From NCBI GenBank assembly GCA_965247925.1, contig CBDFIB010000004.1, positions 1,862,844 to 1,926,843 on the forward strand: a DNA stretch of 64,000 nt, read 5' to 3'. Under the pieces are notes generated by a model, which saw only the letters and a program-made list of their open reading frames with translations, did no database searches and was not told the origin of the DNA. Position numbers and translations under genes: made by a program. Of the stretch, positions 7,586-47,122 are shown piece by piece (the stretch's first letter is position 1; each line of letters starts with the position of its first letter). The stretch is from Dehalococcoidia bacterium. GTDB lineage: Bacteria; Chloroflexota; Dehalococcoidia; UBA2979.

Positions 7586-9288
7586 ACCTGAGCCAGCCTT
7601 CCGGCGCCGCAGCGCTCCTGGACTCGTTCGACGAGGCTTCTCACCTTGAACGGCAACCCCGTGAACTGCGTGAGTGACTCCGCAGACACATATTGTTGCC
7701 GCAAGACACTTGAGAACTGCCCGAGATAGTTGAGCTCGGGCACCAATACCAGCTCCCGGCTCTGAAGGTGCTCGAGCAGGGCCGGGGGCAGCGGGTTGAG
7801 GTACATCGTGTAGCACCAGCCGATGTCCACGCCGGCCGCGCGCAGCTCCTCGTAGGCCGCGCGCGCCGCGCCCTTGGAGCCGCCCCACGGCATCAGCACC
7901 ACCGGCGAGTCCATGTTCTCTGCTTCGTAGTCGCCGTCCTCGAGGATCTTGAGCTTGTTGAAGCGGCGCGCGGTCATCGTCGGGTGCGTGTCCGGCTGGT
8001 GAACCGTGTCGCCCTGCTCGTCGTGCTCCGAGGCATTTGCGATGTAGGCGCCGGGCCCGCCCGGCACGGGGAACGGCGTGACGCCGCCTCCGGCGTAGCG
8101 GCGGTTGCCAATCGAGCCGTCTGAGACGACGCGGTGCTCGACGACGGCGTCGGCGGGGTTGGGGCGCGGGATGTCCTGCGCGCGCTCGGCGAGCTGCATC
8201 TCACTGAGCACGATCACGGGGCCCTGGTACCGCTCGGCCCAGTTGAGGCCCATGATGCCGGCCGTCCAGCACTCCACGACGGTGCCCGGCGCGATCACCG
8301 GCAGCCGCAGGTCGCCGTGGCCGGGGTTGAGGCAGGCCAGCAGGTCGGATTGCTCCGTCTTCGTCGGCAGGCCCGTCGCGGGGCCGCCACGCTGCACGTC
8401 GACCACGACGCAGGGGATCTCCGCCATCCAGGCGAAGCCGAGGCCCTCGCCCATCAGGCTGAGGCCCGGACCGGCTGTCGAGGTCATCGCCTTTCTGCCG
8501 GCGTAGCCCGCACCGATGATCGTCGAGATCGACTCGATCTCGGAACTCGCCTGGACGACCGCCTTGCCTTCGCCGACGAGGTGGTCCTCCATGAACACGA
8601 GAATCGTCGTCGCCGGCGAGATCGGGTAGCCGACGAAGATGTCGAGGCCCGAAGTGATCGCCCCGAGCGAAAGCAGGTCGTTGCCCTTGATGACGACGCG
8701 CGGGCCGTTCTCGGCCGGCGGCTCGTCGAGGTCGGAGACCTTGAAGCCGGTGCGCTCGATCTCCTGAACGCCGAGCTTCAGCGCCTCGATGTTGGCGTCG
8801 ATGATCTGCTGGTCGTTGTCGCGACCGCGGGTGAAGCGCTCGCGGATGAAGTCCTCGAAGTACTCGGGGGGCATCCCGCCGAGGGCGGCGACCGCGCCGA
8901 TCACGACCATGTTGGCCGCGCGCGGGTTGCCGGTGGAGCGCGCCAGCTCGTCGACGGCGATGCCGACGGTGCTGCCGTTGGTGTCGAGGTCGACGTCCTC
9001 GGAGTTGTAGACGAGCACCCCGCCGTCACGCAGTTCGGAGATGTGGCTCTCGTAGGCCTCGCTGTTGAGCACCACGAGGATGTCGAGGGCGTCGCCGTCG
9101 TGCTGGATCGGATTGGTGGAGATGCGGGTCTGCGCCCAGGTGGGGCCGCCCTTGATCTGCGAGGGATAGGTGGAATAGGTCTGCACATGGTAGCCGACGC
9201 GGCCGGCTGCCTGCGCGAGCCCCTCGGCTGCCGTGACCTGTCCCTGGCCACCTTCACCTGCGAACCGGACGATCAGGTCTGTACTCAT
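7582..9288 (-). CDS. korA: 2-oxoacid:ferredoxin oxidoreductase alpha subunit (fused gamma-alpha)
   Basis: 568 aa. An N-terminal gamma-like domain (GEGGQGQVTAAEGLAQAA) is followed by an alpha domain. It lies directly upstream of korB. Confidence 0.8.
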   Translation of the reverse strand: MSTDLIVRFAGEGGQGQVTAAEGLAQAAGRVGYHVQTYSTYPSQIKGGPTWAQTRISTNPIQHDGDALDILVVLNSEAYESHISELRDGGVLVYNSEDVDLDTNGSTVGIAVDELARSTGNPRAANMVVIGAVAALGGMPPEYFEDFIRERFTRGRDNDQQIIDANIEALKLGVQEIERTGFKVSDLDEPPAENGPRVVIKGNDLLSLGAITSGLDIFVGYPISPATTILVFMEDHLVGEGKAVVQASSEIESISTIIGAGYAGRKAMTSTAGPGLSLMGEGLGFAWMAEIPCVVVDVQRGGPATGLPTKTEQSDLLACLNPGHGDLRLPVIAPGTVVECWTAGIMGLNWAERYQGPVIVLSEMQLAERAQDIPRPNPADAVVEHRVVSDGSIGNRRYAGGGVTPFPVPGGPGAYIANASEHDEQGDTVHQPDTHPTMTARRFNKLKILEDGDYEAENMDSPVVLMPWGGSKGAARAAYEELRAAGVDIGWCYTMYLNPLPPALLEHLQSRELVLVPELNYLGQFSSVLRQQYVSAESLTQFTGLPFKVRSLVERVQERCGAGRLAQV

Positions 9289-9627
9289 CTGTCCTCATCC
9301 CGGAGGCGCGTCTGGGCGACCTCGGAGCCATTCGGGCGGGGAGCCAGGGGGGCCGACCGCGCGCGAGGGTACACCGATCGGCAATGCCGGAGCGACGTAC
9401 GCCTTGCGCGTGGTGTGTGGCCTGTGATCCGGAGTGCCGTCATCGGTGGCGCCCGGCCTCGCGATTATCCTGGGGAGGTTCCCGCTGCATCGTACGCGAT
9501 GCTTCCAGATAAGGAGTATCGTTCCCGCGTACGGCTATGTTCAACTGTCCGGGCCGCTCGCTCCCCACCCATGGCGCAATTCGCGTGAGTGAGCTTATCC
9601 ACCGGAATCTACGACGCGTCAACAGCG

Positions 9628-10890
9628 TCAAGACCGGGGCAGTCCGAGGCCGCGCGTCGCGATGATGTTGCGCTGGATCTCCGAGGTCCCGCCGCCGATC
9701 GTGGCGGCCACGCACCCGACATAACCGCGAGACCAGCGGGAGCGCAGCGGGGCACCCTCCTTGTCCCACAGCGCGCCGTAGAGGCCGAGCGTCTTCATCG
9801 CCGTCCGCGCGATGCCCTGCACCAACTGGTCGCTGAACAGCTTCTGCATCGACGCCTCGTAGTTGGGGACGCCGCCGCGCAGTTGCAGCGAGATGACGCG
9901 GTAGGAGAAGAGCCGCGCGAGGTGCCCCTCGATGTAGCGGTCCGCGATCTCGCCCCGCAGGGTGGGGGAGCGGTCGGCGCGCGCACGCGCGGCCGCGCCG
10001 GACGGCGCCTCGTCCTCGATCAGCCGCCGCAGGTCGTCGAGCGTGAGCAGGATGTGCACGCCCGAGCCGATCGAGGAGCGCTCGAAGTCGAGGTGCGTCG
10101 CGCCCACGTACCAGCCGCGGTTGAGCTCGCCCACGGCGTTGCTCGCGGGTACGCGAGCGTCCTCGAAGAACACCTCGTTGAACTCGCGATTGCCGTTGAT
10201 CTGCTCCATCGGGCGGACGCTGATGCCGGGCGTGTCCATCGGCATCAGCAGGTAGGTGATGCCGCGGTGCTTGGGCGCGTCGGGGTCCGTGCGGAAGAGC
10301 CCGAACAGCCACTTCGCCTGGTCGGCGAACGAGGTCCAGATCTTCTGCCCGTTGAGCACGAAGTCGTCGCCGTCGCGGTCCGCCCGCGTCTGCAGCGAGG
10401 CGAGATCGGAGCCGGCGCCCGGCTCGGAGTAGCCCTGCGCCCAGCGCTCCTCGCCGCGCATCAGCCCGGGCAGGAAGCGCCGCTTCATCTCCTCCGACCC
10501 GTGCACGAGGAGCGTGGCGCCCACCAGGTCCGGCACGCCGCCGCCGCCGGGCGCGCGGAAGCCGGCCAGCACCTCGTTGAGGATGAACTGCTGCTCCACG
10601 GAGAGGTCGGCGCCGCCGTACTCCTTCGGCCATCCGGGTGCGGTCCAGCCGCGCTCGATCAGCGCCCGGCGGAACTCCTTCACCAGCCGCTGGTGCTCCT
10701 CGTCTTCGGGCCAGACCGAAGCCGAGCCGGGGCCGCCGAGCCCGCTGTACTGCGCGTCGTCGCGCAGCTTCGCGGGCAGGTGTGCAGCGATGTACCCGGA
10801 CACCTCGCGCCGCCACGCCGCCTGCTCCGGACTGTCCGCGAAGTCGACCATCACGCCCTCCTCGGGTGCGGCTGCAGGGCGGGGCGGCAA
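9628..10890 (-). CDS. acyl-CoA dehydrogenase
   Basis: 420-aa frame with the ACAD N-terminal, middle beta-barrel and C-terminal helical domains (GGTSEIQRNIIA near the C-terminus). The true start is probably the Met at about 10851 (MVDFADSPEQ). Confidence 0.8.
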   Translation of the reverse strand: MPPRPAAAPEEGVMVDFADSPEQAAWRREVSGYIAAHLPAKLRDDAQYSGLGGPGSASVWPEDEEHQRLVKEFRRALIERGWTAPGWPKEYGGADLSVEQQFILNEVLAGFRAPGGGGVPDLVGATLLVHGSEEMKRRFLPGLMRGEERWAQGYSEPGAGSDLASLQTRADRDGDDFVLNGQKIWTSFADQAKWLFGLFRTDPDAPKHRGITYLLMPMDTPGISVRPMEQINGNREFNEVFFEDARVPASNAVGELNRGWYVGATHLDFERSSIGSGVHILLTLDDLRRLIEDEAPSGAAARARADRSPTLRGEIADRYIEGHLARLFSYRVISLQLRGGVPNYEASMQKLFSDQLVQGIARTAMKTLGLYGALWDKEGAPLRSRWSRGYVGCVAATIGGGTSEIQRNIIATRGLGLPRS

Positions 10891-14274: not shown

Positions 14275-14629
14275 GGGGACGATAGGAGTCGACAGGAGTT
14301 TACGGACACGGATTGCGGGCCGAGGCGCCACCACCCTCGTTAAACAGGTGGCAAACCGTAACTGGCGAAAAAGAACTCGCCCTCGCCGCCTAACCAGGCG
14401 GTGACGTCGCCCCCGGGCTCAGCCCGGCAGACCGGGAGGCGGCGACGATACGCCGGGCTGCAACCGCGAAGATGCGCCACAGGTCTCGCGGCCAAGATTA
14501 CTGGGGCTGGCCGGCCCACCCCTCGTCGGTGAAGGCAGGCCGGTGAGACCTTCTCACCGACTACGCCCGTAGTAGATTCGTGACGGCCGCTCTCTGGACG
14601 GGGAGTTCAATTCTCCCCCGTCTCCACCA
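14275..14629 (+). ncRNA. ssrA: transfer-messenger RNA (tmRNA)
   Basis: The 5' GGGGACGATAGGAGTCGAC acceptor/D region and the 3' tRNA-like end (GGACGGGGAGTTCAATTCTCCCCCGTCTCCACCA, T-arm plus CCA) are both present. An internal tag reading frame ends ...GEKELALAA-TAA, and the gene sits downstream of smpB. Confidence 0.8.
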
Positions 14630-35530: not shown

Positions 35531-36334
35531 GTGGCTACCGCCGTGACCGACGGGCCGACCCCGCCGGACGCCGACGAGGAGACCCCGCCGGACGCCGAGG
35601 AGCAGCCTGAAGGCGGCGAGATGACCCTCATGGGTCACCTCCTGGAGCTTCGCTCGCGCATCACCTGGATGGCCGGCGCGATCGTCCTCGGCATGTGCAT
35701 CTTCTTCCCGTTTCCCATCAACTTCGCGGTCTGGGAGTTCCTGCTCGAACCGGCGAGGTCGCGCATCCCCGGCTTCGAGGCGCAGGCGATCGAGCCGCTG
35801 GAGAACCTCGGCGTCTACTTCCGCATCGCCCTCGCCTGCGGGCTCGCCGTGGCGATGCCGATGCTCGTCTACCAGACGATGCGCTTCGTGGCCCCGGCGC
35901 TGACGAAGAAGGAGAGGCGCTGGATCTACCCGATCGCCGGGGGCGCCTCGTTCGCCTTCCTCGCGGGGATGGCCTTCGCCTACTACGTCGTGCTGCCGGC
36001 GGCCTACAGCTTCCTGTTCCAGTTCGCGAGCGACCTTGCCTCTCCCACCCCGCGGATCAGCAGCTACATGGACCTGACGCTGCGGCTGATCGTGATCCTC
36101 GGGCTCGTGTTCGAGATGCCGATCCTGATCATGGGCCTCGCGAGGATGCGGATCGTGCACTGGCGCAAACTGCTCGGCTGGTGGCGCGTCGCGATCATCG
36201 GCGCCTTCGTGGTCTCCGCGATCGCGACACCGACGATCGACCCCGTGACGCAGTCGCTCGTGGCCGGCCCGATGATCGTGCTCTACGGGCTCGGCATCGG
36301 CCTCGCCTGGATCGTGCGTCCGAGGTCCGACTAG
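35531..36334 (+). CDS. tatC: twin-arginine translocase subunit TatC
   Basis: It has HLLELRSR at its N-terminal region, six TM segments and typical TatC motifs. The start may be the internal Met near 35621. Confidence 0.8.
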   Translation: MATAVTDGPTPPDADEETPPDAEEQPEGGEMTLMGHLLELRSRITWMAGAIVLGMCIFFPFPINFAVWEFLLEPARSRIPGFEAQAIEPLENLGVYFRIALACGLAVAMPMLVYQTMRFVAPALTKKERRWIYPIAGGASFAFLAGMAFAYYVVLPAAYSFLFQFASDLASPTPRISSYMDLTLRLIVILGLVFEMPILIMGLARMRIVHWRKLLGWWRVAIIGAFVVSAIATPTIDPVTQSLVAGPMIVLYGLGIGLAWIVRPRSD

Positions 36335-38902: not shown

Positions 38903-41338
38903 GTGATGGCCCGAACGAATACCCGCCGAAGCACAAGCCGTCCCACGCCGGGCGCGCGCTCGCGATCCATCATGCGTCGCGTACTGCGCCCCGAGATCGT
39001 CGGCACCGTCCTCGTCGTCCTCGCAGCGGCGCTGCTGCTCTACCTGCTCCCGCAGATCCCGCTCACCCGCATCGTGAACGATGCCCGCGACGAACTCGTC
39101 GGGGCGTTCGGGCTGCACGTCTTCACGCTCGTCGTGCTGACGCTGGCGGTCGGCCTGCTGCTCGCGCTGCGCCAGGGCAAGCGGCTGCGAGGGCACGCGA
39201 GGCACCTCGCCGGCGCGGCCCTGCTACTGGTGTTCAGCGCGGGCGCGCTCGGCTTCTGGGCCCCCGACGTGATCGTCGGCGAGGTGGACCTCGGCGACGC
39301 CTCGGCAGGCGGGAGCGTCGGCGGGGCGCTCACGGGTGGCGGGATCGCAACGATCGCCTGGGTCGCGGCGCTCGTGGTCGGCTTCACGCTGCTCTGGCCG
39401 CGCACGGCGCTGGCGCTGCTGCGCGCGGCGCCGCCCGCCCTCGGGCGCAGTCTCTCCTGGCTCTGGCGCCACGCGATCAGGCCCGCCGGCCGATCCGTCG
39501 CCGCGTATGTCCGCAGCTACCGGATGCGCCGCAGCGATCCCGCGGCGGGGAGTCACCCCTACGCCGACCTCCGCGCCGACCGGCCGATCGGGTCCGGCCT
39601 GCCCACGCGGCTCGAAAGCGGGTCGGCTCCCGCCGCCGCGGACCTCGAGCCCGCGCCCACCGAAGAAGCCGCGCCTGCGGAGCCGCCGCCGCCCAAGCAG
39701 ATCGAGATGGACCTCGAACACGACGTCAGCGGCTGGCGTCACTCCAGCGACGGCTGGCAGCTCCCGCCGATCGAGCTGCTCGCCGAGGCGGAGCCGCTCG
39801 CGCCCGAGCTGGGCGACCAGCAGCGGCGCGCCGAGCTGATCGTCGAGACGCTCGCCTCCTTCGGCGTCGAGGCGCGCGTCTCGACGATCAACGAGGGCCC
39901 GACGGTCACCCAGTTCGGCGTCGAGCCCGGCTGGGACGTCCGCACGCGCACCGTGGCCGAGCGCACCCCCGAGGGCGCCGCCCTCCTCGACGACGAGGGC
40001 CAGCCCCGCACCCGGCAGATCGAGGTCTCGCGCACGCGCGTGCGCGTGAACCGCATCACCGCGCTGCAGAACGACCTCGCGCTCGCGCTCGCGACGCCCG
40101 CGCTGCGCATCGAGGCGCCGGTCCCCGGCCGGTCGGTCGTGGGCATCGAGGTGCCGAACGCCAGCTCGGCGGTGGTGACGCTGCGCAGCGTGCTGGAGTC
40201 GCGCGAGTTCGCGAAGGCGGCGGGCAAGTCGCCGCTGCCGATCGCCCTCGGCTCCGGCGTGTCCGGCTCGCCGGTGGTCGCCGACCTCGCGGAGATGCCG
40301 CACCTGCTGATCGCGGGCGCGACCGGCTCGGGCAAGTCGGTCTGCCTCAACTCGATCATCGCCTGCCTGCTGATGAACCTCTCGCCCGAGCAGTTGCGCT
40401 TCGTGCTGATCGACCCGAAGCGTGTCGAGCTCGCCGCGTTCGCCGACGTGCCGCACCTCGCGTTCAGCGAGATCGTGGTCGACATGGACAAGGTGGTCGG
40501 CGCGCTCCAGGCCGTCATCCACGAGATGGAGACGCGCTACCGCCGCTTCGCCAAGGTCGGCGTGCGTAACCTCGAGCGCTACAACGAGCAGGCCGGGAGC
40601 GGTCGCCTGCCCTACTGGGTGGTCGTCATCGACGAGCTCGCGGACCTGATGCTCGCCGCGCCCTACCAGGTGGAGCACCAGCTCGTGCGCCTCGCGCAGC
40701 TCGCGAGGGCGACCGGCATCCACCTCGTGGTCGCCACGCAGCGGCCCTCGGTGGACGTGGTGACGGGGCTGATCAAGGCGAACTTCCCCACGAGGATCGC
40801 GTTCGCCGTCTCCTCGCACGTGGACTCGCGCACGATCCTCGACGGCGGTGGCGCTGAGAAGTTGCTCGGCAAGGGCGACATGCTCTTCCAGCCGAAGGAC
40901 CAGGGGAAGCCGACCCGCCTGCAGGGCGTCTACGTCTCAGACGGAGAGATCGACGATGTCGTGGACTTCTGGACGAACGGCCGCTTCGAGAACCTGCGCC
41001 CGCCCAGCTTCGACGAGCTGATCGACGAAGTCGCCGAGGAGGTCGCCGCCCTCGAGGCGCGCGGCGCCGCGGGGCCCCCCTCATCCGAGGTCGACCCGAT
41101 GATTACGAAGGCCCTCGAGCTGGCCCGTGAGCACGACCACATCTCGACGTCGCTGCTGCAGCGCCGCCTGCGCATCGGCTACCCACGCGCCGCGCGCGTC
41201 ATGGACGAGCTCGAGGAGCAGGGTGTCGTCGGCGCCTCCGAGGGCGGCTCCGGCAGCCGCCCCGTCCTCCTCGACGACGACGGTGGTGCGGAGTCTGCGC
41301 CTGTCGCGGGTGCGCCGGTGGTGGATCGGGAGGGGTAG
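38903..41338 (+). CDS. ftsK: DNA translocase FtsK/SpoIIIE
   Basis: N-terminal TM segments and a linker precede the ATPase domain (GATGSGKS; DELADLM). A C-terminal gamma winged-helix domain (LLQRRLRIGYPRAARVMDELE) follows. Confidence 0.85.
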   Translation: MMARTNTRRSTSRPTPGARSRSIMRRVLRPEIVGTVLVVLAAALLLYLLPQIPLTRIVNDARDELVGAFGLHVFTLVVLTLAVGLLLALRQGKRLRGHARHLAGAALLLVFSAGALGFWAPDVIVGEVDLGDASAGGSVGGALTGGGIATIAWVAALVVGFTLLWPRTALALLRAAPPALGRSLSWLWRHAIRPAGRSVAAYVRSYRMRRSDPAAGSHPYADLRADRPIGSGLPTRLESGSAPAAADLEPAPTEEAAPAEPPPPKQIEMDLEHDVSGWRHSSDGWQLPPIELLAEAEPLAPELGDQQRRAELIVETLASFGVEARVSTINEGPTVTQFGVEPGWDVRTRTVAERTPEGAALLDDEGQPRTRQIEVSRTRVRVNRITALQNDLALALATPALRIEAPVPGRSVVGIEVPNASSAVVTLRSVLESREFAKAAGKSPLPIALGSGVSGSPVVADLAEMPHLLIAGATGSGKSVCLNSIIACLLMNLSPEQLRFVLIDPKRVELAAFADVPHLAFSEIVVDMDKVVGALQAVIHEMETRYRRFAKVGVRNLERYNEQAGSGRLPYWVVVIDELADLMLAAPYQVEHQLVRLAQLARATGIHLVVATQRPSVDVVTGLIKANFPTRIAFAVSSHVDSRTILDGGGAEKLLGKGDMLFQPKDQGKPTRLQGVYVSDGEIDDVVDFWTNGRFENLRPPSFDELIDEVAEEVAALEARGAAGPPSSEVDPMITKALELAREHDHISTSLLQRRLRIGYPRAARVMDELEEQGVVGASEGGSGSRPVLLDDDGGAESAPVAGAPVVDREG

Positions 41339-41361
41339 CGGGCGACGCGGCTACAGGGCCG

Positions 41362-41958
41362 TCAGGAACTCGCGAACCGAATCAAGAGCACTGTGATCGA
41401 GATCCCAATAGCCCTTCTGAGCCGCGAATCCCACGGAAACGTGCGGATCCGGTCTCGTCGCCAGCCATGCATGGGCGCGGGCCTTGTCTGGTCGCCTGAT
41501 GGTGGAGTCGGATGCACCCTCGACGCACTCGAGAAGGCCTCGATGCAGTCGCTCTCGGGGCTGCTTGCGAAGGTCTCGCAAAGCAGTGTTTCGAGCATGC
41601 CCGACCGGTCGTCACCAGGCAGGATCAGCACCGTGACGGCGGGCTCCCCGTCGACGCGCTGCCCTGGTGTGTCCGGTGCAGGCAATCCCGCAGCTTGCAG
41701 CGAGCCCTGGACGCTTTGGAACGCGCCCGCGGCGTTCTGCTCCGCATCGCGGACGATGCCGAGGCGGCTGATGCTCCCGAAGTTGGGGGCACTCGCGAGC
41801 AGGCGCAGGAAGGGTCGCAGTTCGCTCACGCCACCGAAGTTCTGTACCTGGACATCGCTGAGTTGCAGGTGCACGACGAGGGCTTCGAAGAAGTTGAACT
41901 GGTCCCGGCCCTCGACGAGCAACTGGATGCGCTTGCCGATGTCCTGCGGCTCCGGCAC
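41362..41958 (-). CDS. TOPRIM-like small partner protein of the AAA_21 ATPase (DUF4276/RloB-like)
   Basis: 198 aa with a GTG start overlapping the ATPase stop (TAGTG) and GAGGTG 6 nt upstream. An N-terminal IQLLVEGRDQFNFFEAL (conserved Glu) and ILPGDDRSGMLE (acidic DxD-like) suggest a TOPRIM-type nuclease fold. Confidence 0.5.
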   Translation of the reverse strand: MPEPQDIGKRIQLLVEGRDQFNFFEALVVHLQLSDVQVQNFGGVSELRPFLRLLASAPNFGSISRLGIVRDAEQNAAGAFQSVQGSLQAAGLPAPDTPGQRVDGEPAVTVLILPGDDRSGMLETLLCETFASSPESDCIEAFSSASRVHPTPPSGDQTRPAPMHGWRRDRIRTFPWDSRLRRAIGISITVLLIRFASS

Positions 41959-42500
41959 TACCGCACCTCGAAGTAGTGCTTGACGGCTGCTGCGGCGATG
42001 TCGGGGTCGTAGGTGACGGCGCGGACACCCCCCTCGACCATGTCGAGCCGGTGGTAGCGGAACGCATCGGGGTCCAGCGACTTCTGCGCGGCCTCGAAGC
42101 ACTCGTAGCTGTGCGTGGTGGCGAAGACCTGCGTGTCGGCGTCCGCCGCCGCCTTCCCGACCACCTTCCACAGGTCCGGCAACACGGAGTGGTGGAACCC
42201 GTTTTCGATCTCATCGACCAGCAGGAGGCTGCCGGCGGCATGTTCGATCGACAGCACCACTTCCGCGAGGTGGATCATGCCCTCCCCGACCACGGTCAGG
42301 GGCACGAGCTCGGGGAGGCCAATGTCGCACCAGATCATGGGCTTGTCGCGCCCCGGAAGAAACTCGATGCTTTGGAGCCTGGGTTCGACGACCCGGAGTG
42401 CGTCGAGGAGCAGGTGGCCTCGCTTGAGCTTGTTCAGGTTACCCAGGCGGTTCGCCAACTCGCCTTGATCGGCGGGGGCGCGCGACAACAGGATCGCCGC
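41958..42500 (-). pseudogene. AAA_21/OLD-type ABC-like ATPase, C-terminal fragment (gene interrupted by a group II intron)
   Basis: It has Walker B/D-loop (GSLLLVDEIENGFHH) and an H-loop (VFATTHS). Its N-terminal boundary coincides with the intron 5' flank, which is uncertain at 42440-42610. Confidence 0.6.
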
Positions 42501-44445
42501 ATCGAATGGGAAAGGGTGATCTGGGAGCGCCAAGCTAACTGGTGTTTGGGGAGGAGGTGGAAGTCCTCTGCGGCAAAGGAACAAGCCATTCCATGCCGCT
42601 CCGCGAGCCGTGCGCGGGTCACCGCGAGGTGGCCCGTGAAGCGTCGGTAGCGGGGTATGCGGGCAGAGCTATTGAGCATCGAAAGGACAATCCGGAGTGC
42701 CGAGACCCTCTAGTTGGTTGAAGGCAGCACCGGCCACGGCGTGATGGGCGAGACGTGGCCGGGCTCCGCGGTGTCGAAGAACTCATGCACGCATGCACGT
42801 CCAACACCGGGACTTGGGAGGGCTGCGCGCCGTCCCGGCGGGTCGTACGCCGGGACCGCATCGGGAAGGGAAGCAACCGGAGCCGATGATGCACGACGCG
42901 CAGCAGTCTGACGCGGGCGTAGTAGCGATGAAGGCGGCGAACAAGGGGGAGCAATTCCCGGCGGAGCCGCTGGAGCGAAGGGCCGCGGCCGAGAGGAATC
43001 CGCGAAGCACCGGCACGGTCCGGACGCAGAGTCGGGGTGCGGTGTCACCTGGAGCGGAGCGGATACGGCAGTTTGCAAAGGAGAATCCGGGGGAGAGGCT
43101 CACCGCGCTTCTGCACCACATCACGCCGGAGGCGCTCCGGGATGCGTATCTCGCGCTCAAGCGGGACGCAGCCCCGGGCGTGGACGGGATGACATGGCGC
43201 GAGTACGGGGACGGGCTGGACGAGCGATTGCTCGACCTGCACGGCCGCGTACACCGTGGAGCGTACCGGGCGACTCCCGTGCGGCGGGTGGAGATCCCGA
43301 AGCCGGACGGGGGCGTGCGACCGCTGGGTATTGCGTCGCTGGAGGACAAGATCGTCCAGCGGGCGGTGGTGGAGCAGATCCTGAACCCGATCTACGAATC
43401 GGAGTTCTACGGATTCAACTACGGGTTCAGGCCGGGGCGCTCGGCGCACGATGCGCTGGACGCGCTGGCCTACGCGGTGGATCGGCGCAAGGTCAACTGG
43501 ATAGTGGAGGTGGACATCCGCCAGTACTTCGACAGCATCGACCGGGAGCAGCTGATGCAGCTCCTGGAGATGCGCATCGGGGACCAGCGGGTACTGCGTC
43601 TCATCCGGAAGTGGCTGAACGCCGGCGTCATCGACGCGGGGCTGGAGGTCGACGTGGTGCGGGGGACGCCGCAGGGGGCGGTGATATCGCCGCTGCTGGC
43701 GAACGTGTACCTGCACCACGTGCTGGACCGTTGGTTCGCGCGGGAATGGCGGCCGCGGGAGGTCCGGGGCGAGGCGTATCTCGTGAGGTACGCCGATGAT
43801 TTCGTCCTGGGGTTTGAGCGCCGCAGCGATGCGGAGCGATTCATGGAGGCGGTCGGGGAGCGGTTCGCTACGTACGGACTGGAAGTGCACCCGGAGAAGA
43901 CGCGCCTGTTGGAGTTCGGCAGGTTCGCGAGAGCGGACCGTGCGAAGCGCGGGGAAGGACGACCGGAGACGTTCGACTTTCTCGGGTTCACGCATTACTG
44001 CCGGACTCAGCGGAACGGGCGTTTCGGGCTGGGGCGCAAGCCGGTGGCGAAGCGAATGCGCCGCACACTGCAGGCCATCAAGGCCGAGTTGCGGAAACGC
44101 ATGCACGCGAACCCGAAGGTGACGGGTCGGTGGCTCGGGCGGGTGCTGCGCGGGTGGCTTGGCTACTACGCGGTGCCGACGAGCGCTCCGTCGCTGTCGC
44201 GGTTCGTCTGGTTCCTGAGGCGGCTGTGGCTGCGCGTCCTCCACCGGAGGTCGCAGCGGGGCTACTTCACCTGGGAGCGCCTGAACGCACTGTGCCGGGA
44301 ACTCTGGCCCCGCGTCACTATCCTCCATCCGTGGCCGTCGGAGCGATTTGCCGTCAGGACTCAAGGCGGGAGCCGTATGCGTTAACGCGCTCGTACGGAT
44401 CCGTGCGGGGGGCGCCGGGCAACCGGCGCTCCTACCGCGAGCCAT
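42500..44445 (+). mobile_element. bacterial group II intron (ORF in domain IV, no En domain), inserted antisense within the ATPase gene
   Basis: It encodes an RT/maturase. A domain V-like hairpin, GAGCCGTATGCGTTAACGCGCTCGTACGGATC, lies at about 44371..44404, followed by a short domain VI-like tail ending ...GAGCCAT near 44445. The 5' end is not fixed; a GTGCG lies at 42605, but more 5' sequence is expected. Confidence 0.6.
42886..44385 (+). CDS. group II intron reverse transcriptase/maturase
   Basis: RT domains 0-7 are present (APGVDGMT, RRVEIPKPDGGVRPLGI, FYGFNYGFRPGRSAHDA, RYADDFVLG). A maturase X domain (RGWLGYYAV) follows, and there is no HNH/En domain. The ORF track extends the frame back to 42793. 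Confidence 0.85.
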   Translation: MMHDAQQSDAGVVAMKAANKGEQFPAEPLERRAAAERNPRSTGTVRTQSRGAVSPGAERIRQFAKENPGERLTALLHHITPEALRDAYLALKRDAAPGVDGMTWREYGDGLDERLLDLHGRVHRGAYRATPVRRVEIPKPDGGVRPLGIASLEDKIVQRAVVEQILNPIYESEFYGFNYGFRPGRSAHDALDALAYAVDRRKVNWIVEVDIRQYFDSIDREQLMQLLEMRIGDQRVLRLIRKWLNAGVIDAGLEVDVVRGTPQGAVISPLLANVYLHHVLDRWFAREWRPREVRGEAYLVRYADDFVLGFERRSDAERFMEAVGERFATYGLEVHPEKTRLLEFGRFARADRAKRGEGRPETFDFLGFTHYCRTQRNGRFGLGRKPVAKRMRRTLQAIKAELRKRMHANPKVTGRWLGRVLRGWLGYYAVPTSAPSLSRFVWFLRRLWLRVLHRRSQRGYFTWERLNALCRELWPRVTILHPWPSERFAVRTQGGSRMR

Positions 44446-44929
44446 TCGATCTTGACCCCTGTCCCTCCGAGCGACTCGATGAGCGAGCATCCTTACCCGG
44501 CTGACTGTAGCGCAAGGCAAGCTTCGGCCTGAGCGATGCCTGCGATGACACGTCTTTCAGGGACCGGCGCTTCGCCGATCCGATCGGGACTTCCGGGGTT
44601 GTTGGCCACTCCCTCTCGATGCTGAGCGTCCATGCGCCAAACGCCTTATGGGTCACGGCGACTTCAATGGCTGCCTGATGGTCCAACCCGTTGAACAACT
44701 CCCGCCACGGCGCCGCATCGCGGAGGCTATCGCGCGCGCCGTCGGTGCGGATCAGGTTCGTGTCGAGCGCCCCTCCCGGGTTCCCGGCCGTGGACAGCAG
44801 GAATAGCGCTTCAAGCAGGCTGGTCTTACCGGAGTTGTTGCGGCCGCCGATCAGGTTGATGCGCGCGAGTTCATCCATCTCGAGGTCGCGCAGAGCGCGG
44901 AAGTTCTTGATGTGGAGACGTTCGAGCAT
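44446..44929 (-). pseudogene. AAA_21/OLD-type ATPase, N-terminal fragment with Walker A
   Basis: It starts MLERLHIKNFRALRDLEMDELARINLIGGRNNSGKTSLLEAL. The frame runs into intron sequence and reaches a stop at 44432. Confidence 0.65.
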
Positions 44930-45010
44930 CGCAGTCAGCCCATGTGTCTGGCCCGTACGGACCCGGAGCAGCGGTCAGCCGTAGTGTAGACCCTCGCCCG
45001 CTGACCCGCC

Positions 45011-47122
45011 CTACCTCCCCCGCCGCCGCCCGCCGCGGCGCCCGCCGCCGCCATTCGCGCGCTGCGGGCGCGGCGAGGGGGACTCGAAGGCGCGCAGGCC
45101 CTCGGGGGTGTCGCCGACGAGTTCGCGGCGCAGCTCGACGATCCGGTCGCGGAGCTGGGCCGCGCGCTCGAACTCCAACTCGCGCGCCGCAGACTTCATC
45201 TGCGACTCCAGCTCCTTGATCATCCGCAGCAGTTCGTCGCGCGGCAGGTCCGTGGCGACGACGTATGCGGGCGACTCCTCGGCGACGCGCAGGCCGTCGG
45301 TGATGTCGCGGATCTGCTTGCTGATGCCCTCGGGCTCGATGCCGTTCTGCTCGTTCCAGGCGACCTGGATCGCGCGCCGGCGTCCCGTCTCGTCGAGGGC
45401 GGTGTGCATCGATTGCGTGACGGTGTCGGCGTACATGATCACGCGGCCCCCGGCGTGGCGGGCGGCACGGCCGATCGTCTGGATCAGTGACCCGCCGGAG
45501 CGCAGGAAGCCCTCCTTGTCGGCGTCGAGGATGCAGACCAGCGAGACCTCGGGCAGGTCGAGGCCCTCGCGCAGCAGGTTGATACCGACGAGCACGTCGT
45601 ACACGCCCTGGCGCAGGTCGCGGAGGATGTCGACGCGCTCGAGGGTGTCGATCTCGGAGTGGAGGTACTGCGCCTTCACGTCCATCTCGATCAGGTAGTC
45701 GGTCAGGTCCTCGGCCATCTTCTTGGTCAGCGTCGTCACCAGCACGCGCTCGCGGCGCTCCGCCCGCGTGCGCACCTCGGCGAGCAGGTCGTCGATCTGC
45801 CCCTGCGTCTCGCGCACCTCGACGATGGGATCGGGGAGGCCGGTCGGGCGGATCACCTGCTCGGCGACCTGCTGCGAGCGCTCCAGCTCGAACGGGCCGG
45901 GCGTCGCGGAGACGAAGATCACCTGGTTGAGGTGATCCTCGAACTCGGCGAAGTTGAGCGGGCGATTGTCGAGCGCCGAGGGCAACCGGAAGCCGAAGTC
46001 GACCAGCGTCTCCTTGCGCCGGATGTCCCCGAAGTACATCCCCCGGATCTGCGGCACGGCGATGTGCGACTCGTCGATGAAGACCAGCCAGTCGTCCGGG
46101 AAGTAGTCGAGCAGTGTCCACGGCGTGGAGCCTTCGGCGCGGCCCTGCAGGTGCCGCGAGTAGTTCTCGATACCCGAGCAGTAGCCGCTCTCGCGCAGCA
46201 TCTCCAGGTCGTAGCGCGTGCGCTCCTCGAGCCGCGTCGCCTCGAGGATGCGGCCCTCGCGGCGCAGCGCGACGGAGCGCTCGCGCAGCTCCTCCTCGAT
46301 GTTGGTGATGGCGACCTCGAGACGGTCGCTGGAGGTCACGAAGTGCTTCGCCGGGTAGATCGAGAAGCGCTCCTGCGCCGTCAGCAGCTCGCCGGAGAGC
46401 GGATCGACGGTGACGATGCGCTCGATCTCGTCGCCCCAGAAGTCGACGCGCACGGCGAGGTCCTCGTAGGCGGGGAAGATCGTCAGCGTGTCGCCGCGCA
46501 CGCGGAAGGTGCCGCGCACGAGGTTCATATCGTTGCGCGCGTACTGCATGTCGATCAGCTGGCGGATCAGCGAGTTGCGGTTGACGTGCCGCCCGACGTG
46601 CAGCTTCGCGACGAACGACTCGTACTCGCCCGGCTCGCCGAGGCCGTAGATGCAGGACACCGAGGCGACGATCAGCACGTCGCGGTGTTCAAACAGCGCC
46701 CGTGTCGCCGAATGGCGCATCTTGTCGATCTCTTCGTTGATGTCGGCGTCCTTGGCGATGTAGGTGTCCGAGCGCGGGACGTACGCCTCGGGCTGGTAGT
46801 AGTCGTAGTACGAGACGAAGTACTCGACCGCGTTGCGCGGGAAGAAGTCGCGGAACTCCGAGGTCAGTTGCGCGGCCAGCGTGCGGTTGGGCGCGAGCAC
46901 CAGCGTCGGCCCTGGTTGGCGCTGGGCGATGATGTTCGCCATCGTAAAGGTCTTGCCGGAGCCGGTGGCTCCATTGTACGCCGCAGCGAGCATGGTCTGC
47001 ATCGCCAGACCGCGATCGAGGCCCTCACTGAGCTGCTCGATCGCCTGCGGCTGGTCGCCCGTCGGGCGGAAGTCGCTGACCAGTTCGAACCCGGTGCTCG
47101 CTGTGGTGGTCACGCGTTCCAT
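45011..47122 (-). CDS. uvrB: excinuclease ABC subunit B
   Basis: 703 aa with the helicase motifs GATGSGKT and the beta-hairpin region, plus a C-terminal UvrB/UvrC interaction domain ([16 protein letters not shown]). Confidence 0.9.

Follow-up and report, generated by a model that had tools for sequence, protein, structure and literature searches.

A probably dead PDC-M38-type ATPase/TOPRIM operon in a Dehalococcoidia chromosome, split by an antisense group II intron

We analysed a 64,000-nt stretch of contig CBDFIB010000004.1 from a Dehalococcoidia bacterium (assembly GCA_965247925.1, positions 1,862,844 to 1,926,843; hereafter the window, in whose coordinates all positions are given), which includes the slot between uvrB and ftsK. 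On its minus strand this slot contains a two-gene operon, in which an ABC-type ATPase gene is followed by a gene for a partner protein. Very probably, it is a dead copy of a PDC-M38-type ATPase/TOPRIM operon, which is split by a group II intron in antisense orientation and carries one frameshift in each gene. The initial annotation, made from the letters alone, had claimed an ATPase plus TOPRIM-like pair between ftsK and uvrB, and all of these features were recovered, well above chance. What happened at this locus is ordinary gene decay.

The ATPase is encoded in two fragments. The first, comprising codons 1-163 (44442..44929, minus strand), was delimited from the list of open reading frames (ORFs), Pfam and PADLOC profiles and alignment to an intron-free ortholog. 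It contains a Walker A motif (GGRNNSGKTS, 44848-44819) and matches AAA_15 (E = 1.9e-11) and AbiLi (E = 4.9e-21), as well as AAA_23, AAA_21 and PDC-M38A. The second fragment, which comprises codons 164-351 plus the stop (41958..42524, minus strand), contains a Walker B motif (LLLVDE, within 42227-42198) and an H-loop (ATTHS, within 42125-42108), terminates at a TAG stop (41960-41958) and matches AAA_21 (E = 1e-11), PDC-M38A (E = 9.5e-29) and AbiLi (E = 8e-28). This C-terminal fragment had been recognised in the initial annotation, but with a start at about 42500, whereas the true start is 42524. The intron-free ortholog locus, designated L001, is located on a 3.58-Mb chromosome of a Dehalococcoidia metagenome-assembled genome (MAG) and has the same neighbourhood as the window, in the order uvrB, 351-aa ATPase, 202-aa DUF3226 protein and ftsK, the latter on the opposite strand. 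When joined, the two window fragments align over their full length to the continuous 351-aa protein encoded at L001 (P0001), with an identity of 95% (E = 7e-216), confirming that they form one ATPase. Identity to P0001 is 96.6% once the frame is corrected, and the C-terminal fragment differs from L001 by 5 mismatches in 566 nt. The intact ortholog P0001 matches the AbiLi profile (PDLC02336) with 169 bits over profile positions 1-340 of 340 and PDC-M38A (PDLC04611) with 161 bits; the latter profile scores 66 and 99 bits on the two fragments in the window. The full-length gene is a Rad50/SMC-type ABC ATPase of 351 aa, for which similarity to AriA is only secondary, the AbiLi and PDC-M38A profiles being nearer.

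An intact pair lacking the intron is present in the syntenic orthologs L001, L068, L070 and L074, and comparison with L001 supplies the empty site. BLAST alignment of the window with this locus leaves 42524-44441 unmatched, and the sequence GATCTGC/CCATTCG at the empty site (the slash marking the insertion point) corresponds in intron orientation to GATCTGG-(1917 nt)-CCATTCG at the filled site. This fixes the insertion in phase 0 between ATPase codons 163 (TGG) and 164, on the plus strand and hence antisense to the ATPase gene. Position 42524 is G in the window versus C at the empty site, which we attribute to a polymorphism of the target site that changes Ala to Pro where the protein is little conserved. 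Because the intron is antisense, the ATPase mRNA carries the ribozyme only in reverse-complement form and cannot be spliced, as had been claimed for this interrupted ORF.

At the 3′ end of the ATPase gene, the sequence TAGTG (41960-41956) contains the ATPase stop and, overlapping it by 1 nt, the GTG start of the partner gene (41958-41956). The coupling of the two genes noted in the initial annotation is thus present here, and the identical 1-nt stop/start overlap is found in the four orthologous loci. The partner gene (41351..41958, minus strand) is a pseudogene for a DUF3226 (TOPRIM-fold) protein, as determined from comparison with orthologs and from Pfam DUF3226 (PF11536), which matches in two frames with 65.4 and 30.8 bits (cutoff 27) and is present in 120 of the 120 listed partner homologs. 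Profile matches to the partner were limited to this family and to PADLOC PDC-M38B (PDLC04624, PDLC04623), which scores 28 bits on frame A of the window and 33-40 bits on the intact orthologs. No match to AbiLii, AriB or DUF4435 was found in PADLOC (E ≤ 0.1) or Pfam, AbiLii being absent also from a second set of partner hits (E ≤ 0.001), and the earlier description of the partner as DUF4276/RloB/AriB-like was therefore not borne out by the profiles. Its TOPRIM-like character, on the other hand, agrees with a structure model of an 82%-identical ortholog, which predicts an OLD-like TOPRIM fold. The partner has the four-stranded beta/alpha core, the conserved E, the D-x-D/E, another acidic residue and the Lys of TOPRIM domains, the corresponding residues in the window being E (VEG, 41922-41902), D-x-E (RDAE, 41757-41740), E (MLETLL, 41601-41581) and K (PDKARA, 41491-41474). 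A chance sequence match to Bcl-xL proved a dead end and was dismissed.

In addition to the intron, each gene lacks one base. In the ATPase gene, a run of four C residues (44456-44459) replaces the run of five in the ortholog, 15-18 nt from the 3′ junction of the intron. The N-terminal ORF is consequently already out of frame at the junction and continues into the intron as far as a TAG stop (44434-44432). For the proximity of this deletion to the junction, we considered coincidence, a by-product of cDNA integration and repair, and homopolymer error. In the partner gene the missing base is at 41531/41532, between ...CIEAF and ECVEG..., and lies 5′ of the Lys motif residue; the Pfam match is split over the two frames (profile positions 3-141 and 135-206) and, with the base restored, the partner aligns without gaps to the 202-aa ortholog. 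The 198-aa partner of the initial annotation is thus a frameshifted 202-aa gene with its last 60 residues in the other frame, and since the 198-aa ORF is the frameshifted reading, the true end of the gene is 41351 rather than 41362. As each gene lacks one base, exact loss of the intron would restore neither protein.

The best surviving alternative, which we nevertheless consider unlikely, is that the intron is the only real lesion and that both deletions (44456-44459 and 41531/41532) are assembly errors, in which case the partner would be intact and the ATPase could be restored by exact intron loss. The deletions are indeed located in a C/G homopolymer and in a TTCTTC repeat, and the contig names of related MAGs suggest long-read assembly. 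However, comparison of uvrB, ftsK and the RNase J gene with L001 (approximately 11 kb) revealed in-frame indels only (18- and 6-base gaps), a single 1-base gap near 36300 falling outside the flanking genes compared, and the truncated 198-aa ORF also appears in public gene calls (P0124). Because about 11 kb of flanking coding DNA is free of frame-breaking indels and the 1.67-kb module has two, we favour real decay over assembly error for both frameshifts.

To examine how the module has evolved, four genomes were compared. Proteins encoded by neighbouring genes are 90-99% identical between them, the ATPase 74-97% and the DUF3226 protein 62-83%, and the nearest relatives of the ATPase and the DUF3226 protein are discordant: the window ATPase is 96.6% identical to that of L001, and the window DUF3226 protein is 64.9% identical to that of L001 and 82.7% identical to that of L068. 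At synonymous sites, the window diverges from L001 by 0.033 in the ATPase gene, by 0.93 in the DUF3226 gene and by 0.08-0.13 in the flanks. Sliding identity, the positions of mismatches and synonymous divergence delimit an island (41345..41943, on neither strand in particular) that coincides with the DUF3226 gene, in which nucleotide identity to L001 is approximately 70% versus 93-99% on both sides. Its 5′ breakpoint lies between 41964 and 41943, which confines the switch to some 20 nt where the DUF3226 gene begins. Judging from these patterns of divergence, the island is most readily explained as an allele replacement by recombination and not by faster drift, and the module looks like a recombination mosaic in which the effector allele was swapped. 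Allele mosaicism is what one would expect of a conflict locus.

The surroundings of related pairs were also inspected. In other phyla the pair is located beside genes for a methyltransferase, a TIR protein and a ResIII helicase (L072), and beside VapBC and CTD10/MC6 genes (L073). Together with the allele swap, these foreign-phylum neighbours are circumstantial signs of a conflict function. In L074, from more distant Dehalococcoidia, two DDE transposase genes of insertion sequences (IS) are situated between the DUF3226 gene and ftsK (7644-10061 of that locus). Because L074 also has insertions there, the uvrB-ftsK slot appears to collect mobile elements repeatedly. In L071 (8001-9217), the ATPase homolog is followed by a 54-aa ORF and not by a DUF3226 gene, which may be another decayed partner.

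A bolder interpretation, which we regard as possible but hold only tentatively, is that the slot is a long-lived, recombining immunity islet in which sensor and effector alleles are swapped separately, that the double lesion records a PARIS-like toxin-antitoxin dependency, and that the intron represents a compact lineage, with a GAGCG start and a stop codon in the domain V loop, as yet unassigned to a described class. Since the breakpoint is located exactly at the stop/start overlap, alleles would on this interpretation be exchanged independently, and the nuclease left free after loss of the ATPase would have had to be silenced, whether through the frameshift or through polar and antisense effects of the intron. 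In the opposite direction, the pair might be a lineage-specific accessory of DNA repair or recombination, RecF/RecR-like or Rad50/OLD-like, that is retained beside uvrB. This appears improbable, as amino acid identity of the pair between genomes (62-97%) contrasts with that of the neighbours (90-99%), the relatives of the two proteins are discordant, synonymous divergence is as much as tenfold higher than in the flanks, and the pair is dispensable in this genome. Moreover, IS transposases occupy the same slot in L074, pairs in other phyla are found among toxin-antitoxin, TIR and methyltransferase genes, and the best-matching profiles are defence models.

The intron is complete and compact, with a length of 1917 nt (42525..44441, plus strand), as established from the empty site in L001, comparison with about 35 relatives and matches to RF02005 and RF00029. 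An RT (reverse transcriptase)-based genome scan identified 66 related loci, of which about 35 align from 42525 (plus or minus a few bases) to 44440-44443. Full-length relatives are found in several Dehalococcoidia MAGs (81-90% identity) and in one Spirochaetia MAG (72%). Because copies within one genome that differ by 0-2 bases in 1917 carry different flanks, the shared ends are the ends of the element. These shared ends, together with the matches to RF02005 and TIGR04416 described below, uphold the earlier claim of a complete antisense group II intron with an RT of about 500 aa and a domain V.

Group II introns have the boundary consensus 5′ GUGYG ... AY 3′. The window intron departs from this consensus at both ends (GAGCG ... 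AG), starting with GAGCG and ending in ...CUACCGCGAG. Distant relatives begin with GUGCG where the window has GAGCG, and others with GAACG, GAAAGCG or GAUAGCG; at the 3′ end, relatives have AA, AC, CC or AU. Because the loop that forms exon-binding site 1 (EBS1) covaries with the end of the 5′ exon, the 5′ splice site can be placed directly before GAGCG/GUGCG. The multicopy spread of the family shows that variant intron ends are tolerated, and position 2 of GUGYG seems to be dispensable in this family. Copy numbers are high despite the variable 5′ ends, with at least 9 identical copies in a deltaproteobacterial MAG and more than 15 in a Spirochaetia MAG, this range of 5′ ends being drawn from the window and L036, L043, L045, L048 and L051.

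A 5′ truncation of the intron was first suspected, given that GUGYG is absent, that the insert starts G/GAGCG only 35 nt before the Rfam match and that the RNA outside the ORF amounts to about 420 nt. That the insertion is a 5′-truncated, dead intron fragment is nevertheless a very remote prospect and was rejected after comparison with the family and in view of EBS1 covariation: some 35 relatives from several genomes have their first base at the same position, distant members have GUGCG there, covariation of EBS1 with intron-binding site 1 (IBS1) fixes the splice site, and the helix that closes domain I is present and covaries. Equally negligible is the prospect that the junctions are an assembly chimera and that the organism's ATPase gene has no intron since, even though related genomes contain multiple copies of the intron and repeats may cause misassembly, both junctions are base-precise relative to the empty site, the flanks are colinear with L001 on each side and the UGG end of the 5′ exon is shared with sister copies.

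Folding and covariance analysis, as proposed in the initial annotation, showed the anatomy of the intron (42525-44441). Ribozyme domains I-III occupy approximately 360 nt (42525..42885, plus strand), in which RF02005 (group-II-D1D4-6) matches 42560-42783 with 171 bits (E = 8e-50; gathering score 49). RNAalifold analysis of 14 family members predicted 103 pairs, 67 of which show compensatory changes. Domain I, of about 300 nt, is closed by a long-range, covarying helix, and two small hairpins lie between it and the ORF. The EBS1 loop (CUAGUU, 42710-42715; alignment column 213) is complementary, over 5-7 bp, to the 3′ end of the 5′ exon in 10 of the 14 members aligned. The RT/maturase ORF (499 aa, 42886..44385, plus strand) is full length, contains the YADD motif (within 43786-43806) and lacks an endonuclease (En) domain. 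It matches NCBIfam TIGR04416 with 352 bits (cutoff 300) and Pfam RVT_1 (E = 1.2e-38) and, weakly, GIIM (19.6 bits, below the cutoff of 23), and was further identified by matches to solved structures. Domains V and VI (44370..44441, plus strand) are indicated by covariation in the family and by RF00029, which matches 44368-44441 with 30 bits (E = 0.003), under the gathering score of 40 that is passed by relatives L036, L045, L047, L048 and L051 (40.5-47.8 bits). Domain V (44370-44401) has 32 nt, with an AGC triad, a 2-nt bulge and a distal helix that shows compensatory changes across the family; domain VI (44403-44441) has a bulged A at 44434, 7 nt before the 3′ end. The TAA stop of the RT (44383-44385) is located inside the terminal loop of domain V. 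The RT stop (TAA or TAG) also falls in the domain V loop in most of the relatives inspected, including L002, L004, L030 and L036, so that the ORF overlaps the catalytic hairpin.

Class IIC introns are distinguished by insertion just downstream of a terminator-like hairpin or an attC site. The solved-structure RTs closest to the window protein are those of class IIC (7uim and 6ar1, with 161-169 bits versus 112-119 bits for classes IIA and IIB), in a comparison where solved structures cover none of classes D-F. In the 70 nt before the insertion, folding was no better than that of shuffled sequence (z = 0.28) and no terminator-like site was found. We did not adopt the class IIC label, as there is no upstream hairpin and the RT similarity is drawn from the solved structures alone.

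In the window copy, EBS1 (CUAG) and the 5′ exon (CUGG) form no more than 4 bp, one of them G-U, and a UGG end of the 5′ exon is common to the window site and the sister copies. Because EBS1 pairing is 4 bp here versus 6-7 bp in several sister intron lineages, the insertion looks like ectopic retrotransposition into a poorly matching site. Introns whose RT lacks the En domain prime from replication forks, and most bacterial copies are found outside housekeeping genes (review, PMC4424553).

Elsewhere in the family, one intron lineage occupies a conserved site of approximately 48 nt that is itself part of a larger repeated element. In the Dehalococcoidia MAG CBDHDI, five copies (L004-L007 and L010) have left flanks that are identical over at least 2.6 kb and right flanks that are shared over approximately 340-350 nt; because of these long shared flanks, the intron appears to ride within a larger multicopy element. 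Loci L009, L016 and L021 share just 40-49 nt or so of left flank, which looks like a conserved homing site. In the deltaproteobacterial MAG (L036-L042, L056 and L062), about 7 of the 9 intron copies lie within tandem heptamer repeats (AGTGAAT/AGTGGAT). The EBS1 of these copies (UCACUA) matches the repeat unit, and this simple repeat seems to act as a homing target with many sites. A metagenome scan with the 21-mer at the 5′ junction of the window returned L075 and L076 only, which have no BLAST similarity to the window and are chance matches.

An intact pair probably acts in the manner of PARIS, AbiL, OLD and Gabija: its ATPase would detect an infection and restrain or switch on the TOPRIM nuclease, and cleavage of nucleic acid by the activated nuclease would abort the infection. 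In the ancestor of the window copy, the En-less intron would have reverse-spliced into an ectopic site that pairs with four bases of EBS1, and the frameshifts would have accompanied or followed the intron, in an order of lesions that we infer. If the pair follows the toxin/antitoxin logic of PARIS, a cell without the ATPase would be expected to lose the nuclease as well, and this might, speculatively, explain the frameshift in the partner. Expression of the intron would have to come from plus-strand transcription, for which read-through from ftsK is our guess. The long antisense RNA that the initial annotation ascribed to the intron is putative. A scan of 40800-45300 for promoters and terminators found none on either strand, and GC skew, considered as a cue to replication direction and intron orientation, gave no usable signal across the 64-kb window.

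Several points weigh against our preferred reading of the locus as a dead PDC-M38-type operon split by a complete intron. The pair has a stable seat beside uvrB in several genomes, unlike a typical mobile defence island, and the part played by PDC-M38 and DUF3226 in phage defence is that of a candidate. Both 1-base lesions are in repeats (the C4 versus C5 homopolymer and a short TTC repeat) and could be assembly errors. As regards the intron, the G at 42524 could be its first base, with one target base lost, and its ends are off consensus and its domain V is below the gathering score, so that splicing activity of the window copy is putative.

Subject to these points, the locus provides a clean natural case in which a mobile intron and frameshifts destroy a candidate immune operon, with intact sister alleles available for comparison. 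DUF3226 can be annotated as a TOPRIM protein of the OLD-like kind that partners an AbiLi-like ATPase, which suggests a testable mechanism for PDC-M38, and the swapping of the partner between otherwise near-identical chromosomes is the expected signature of a conflict gene. The intron family spreads despite its GAGCG 5′ end. Current understanding is unchanged by these results, which refine the annotation of uncultured Chloroflexota genomes and do not reveal a new kind of system. The window also contains an ordinary tmRNA gene (14275-14629, plus strand; 139 bits) and a bacterial class A RNase P RNA (28385-28785, minus strand; 262 bits).

Among known systems, the pair corresponds most closely to PDC-M38. 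PDC systems comprise 145 untested candidates from guilt-by-embedding, and PDC-M38 is listed among them (Payne et al., bioRxiv 10.1101/2024.01.29.577857, supplementary file 8). In the literature on DUF3226 and PDC-M38 we found nothing in the main texts, PDC-M38 being present only in this supplementary table. The profiles for both A and B components are matched by adjacent genes on the same strand, with the ATPase first; the window differs in that the B match is weak (28-40 bits) and the copy is a pseudogene pair. The suggestion that the pair might be an undescribed variant hence gives way to a catalogued candidate. The nearest solved chain to the DUF3226 protein is 2p62 (PH0156 of P. horikoshii), with a sequence identity of only 13%.

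The broader proposal of a PARIS/AbiL/OLD-type pair stands as far as the combination of an ABC ATPase with a TOPRIM protein of a defence-associated kind is concerned, but not for the partner, which matches neither AbiLii nor AriB. AbiL of Lactococcus consists of the AbiLi ATPase and the TOPRIM/OLD-like AbiLii (review PMC13064643). The window resembles it in that the AbiLi profile is matched end to end and the ATPase is accompanied by a TOPRIM-fold partner, and differs in that this partner has no AbiLii match at E ≤ 0.1, the partner families being different. In PARIS, which combines the ABC ATPase AriA with the DUF4435 TOPRIM protein AriB, the partner is again of another family, as the window protein has no AriB/DUF4435 match, and the ATPase is less AriA-like. 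In OLD and GajA (Gabija) the two domains are fused in one polypeptide, whereas here they are encoded by separate, overlapping genes. The pair therefore agrees with PDC-M38 in its sequence features and departs from AbiL and PARIS in its partner.

The intron shares with compact IIC and group-II-D1D4-6 introns an En-less RT, a ribozyme of approximately 420 nt and EBS1-IBS1 recognition, and differs from IIC introns in its AGC triad, its GAGCG...AG ends and the lack of an upstream terminator hairpin. It belongs to an RNA type catalogued in Rfam and to an NCBIfam RT family, and its odd ends and the stop codon in domain V are traits of the family.

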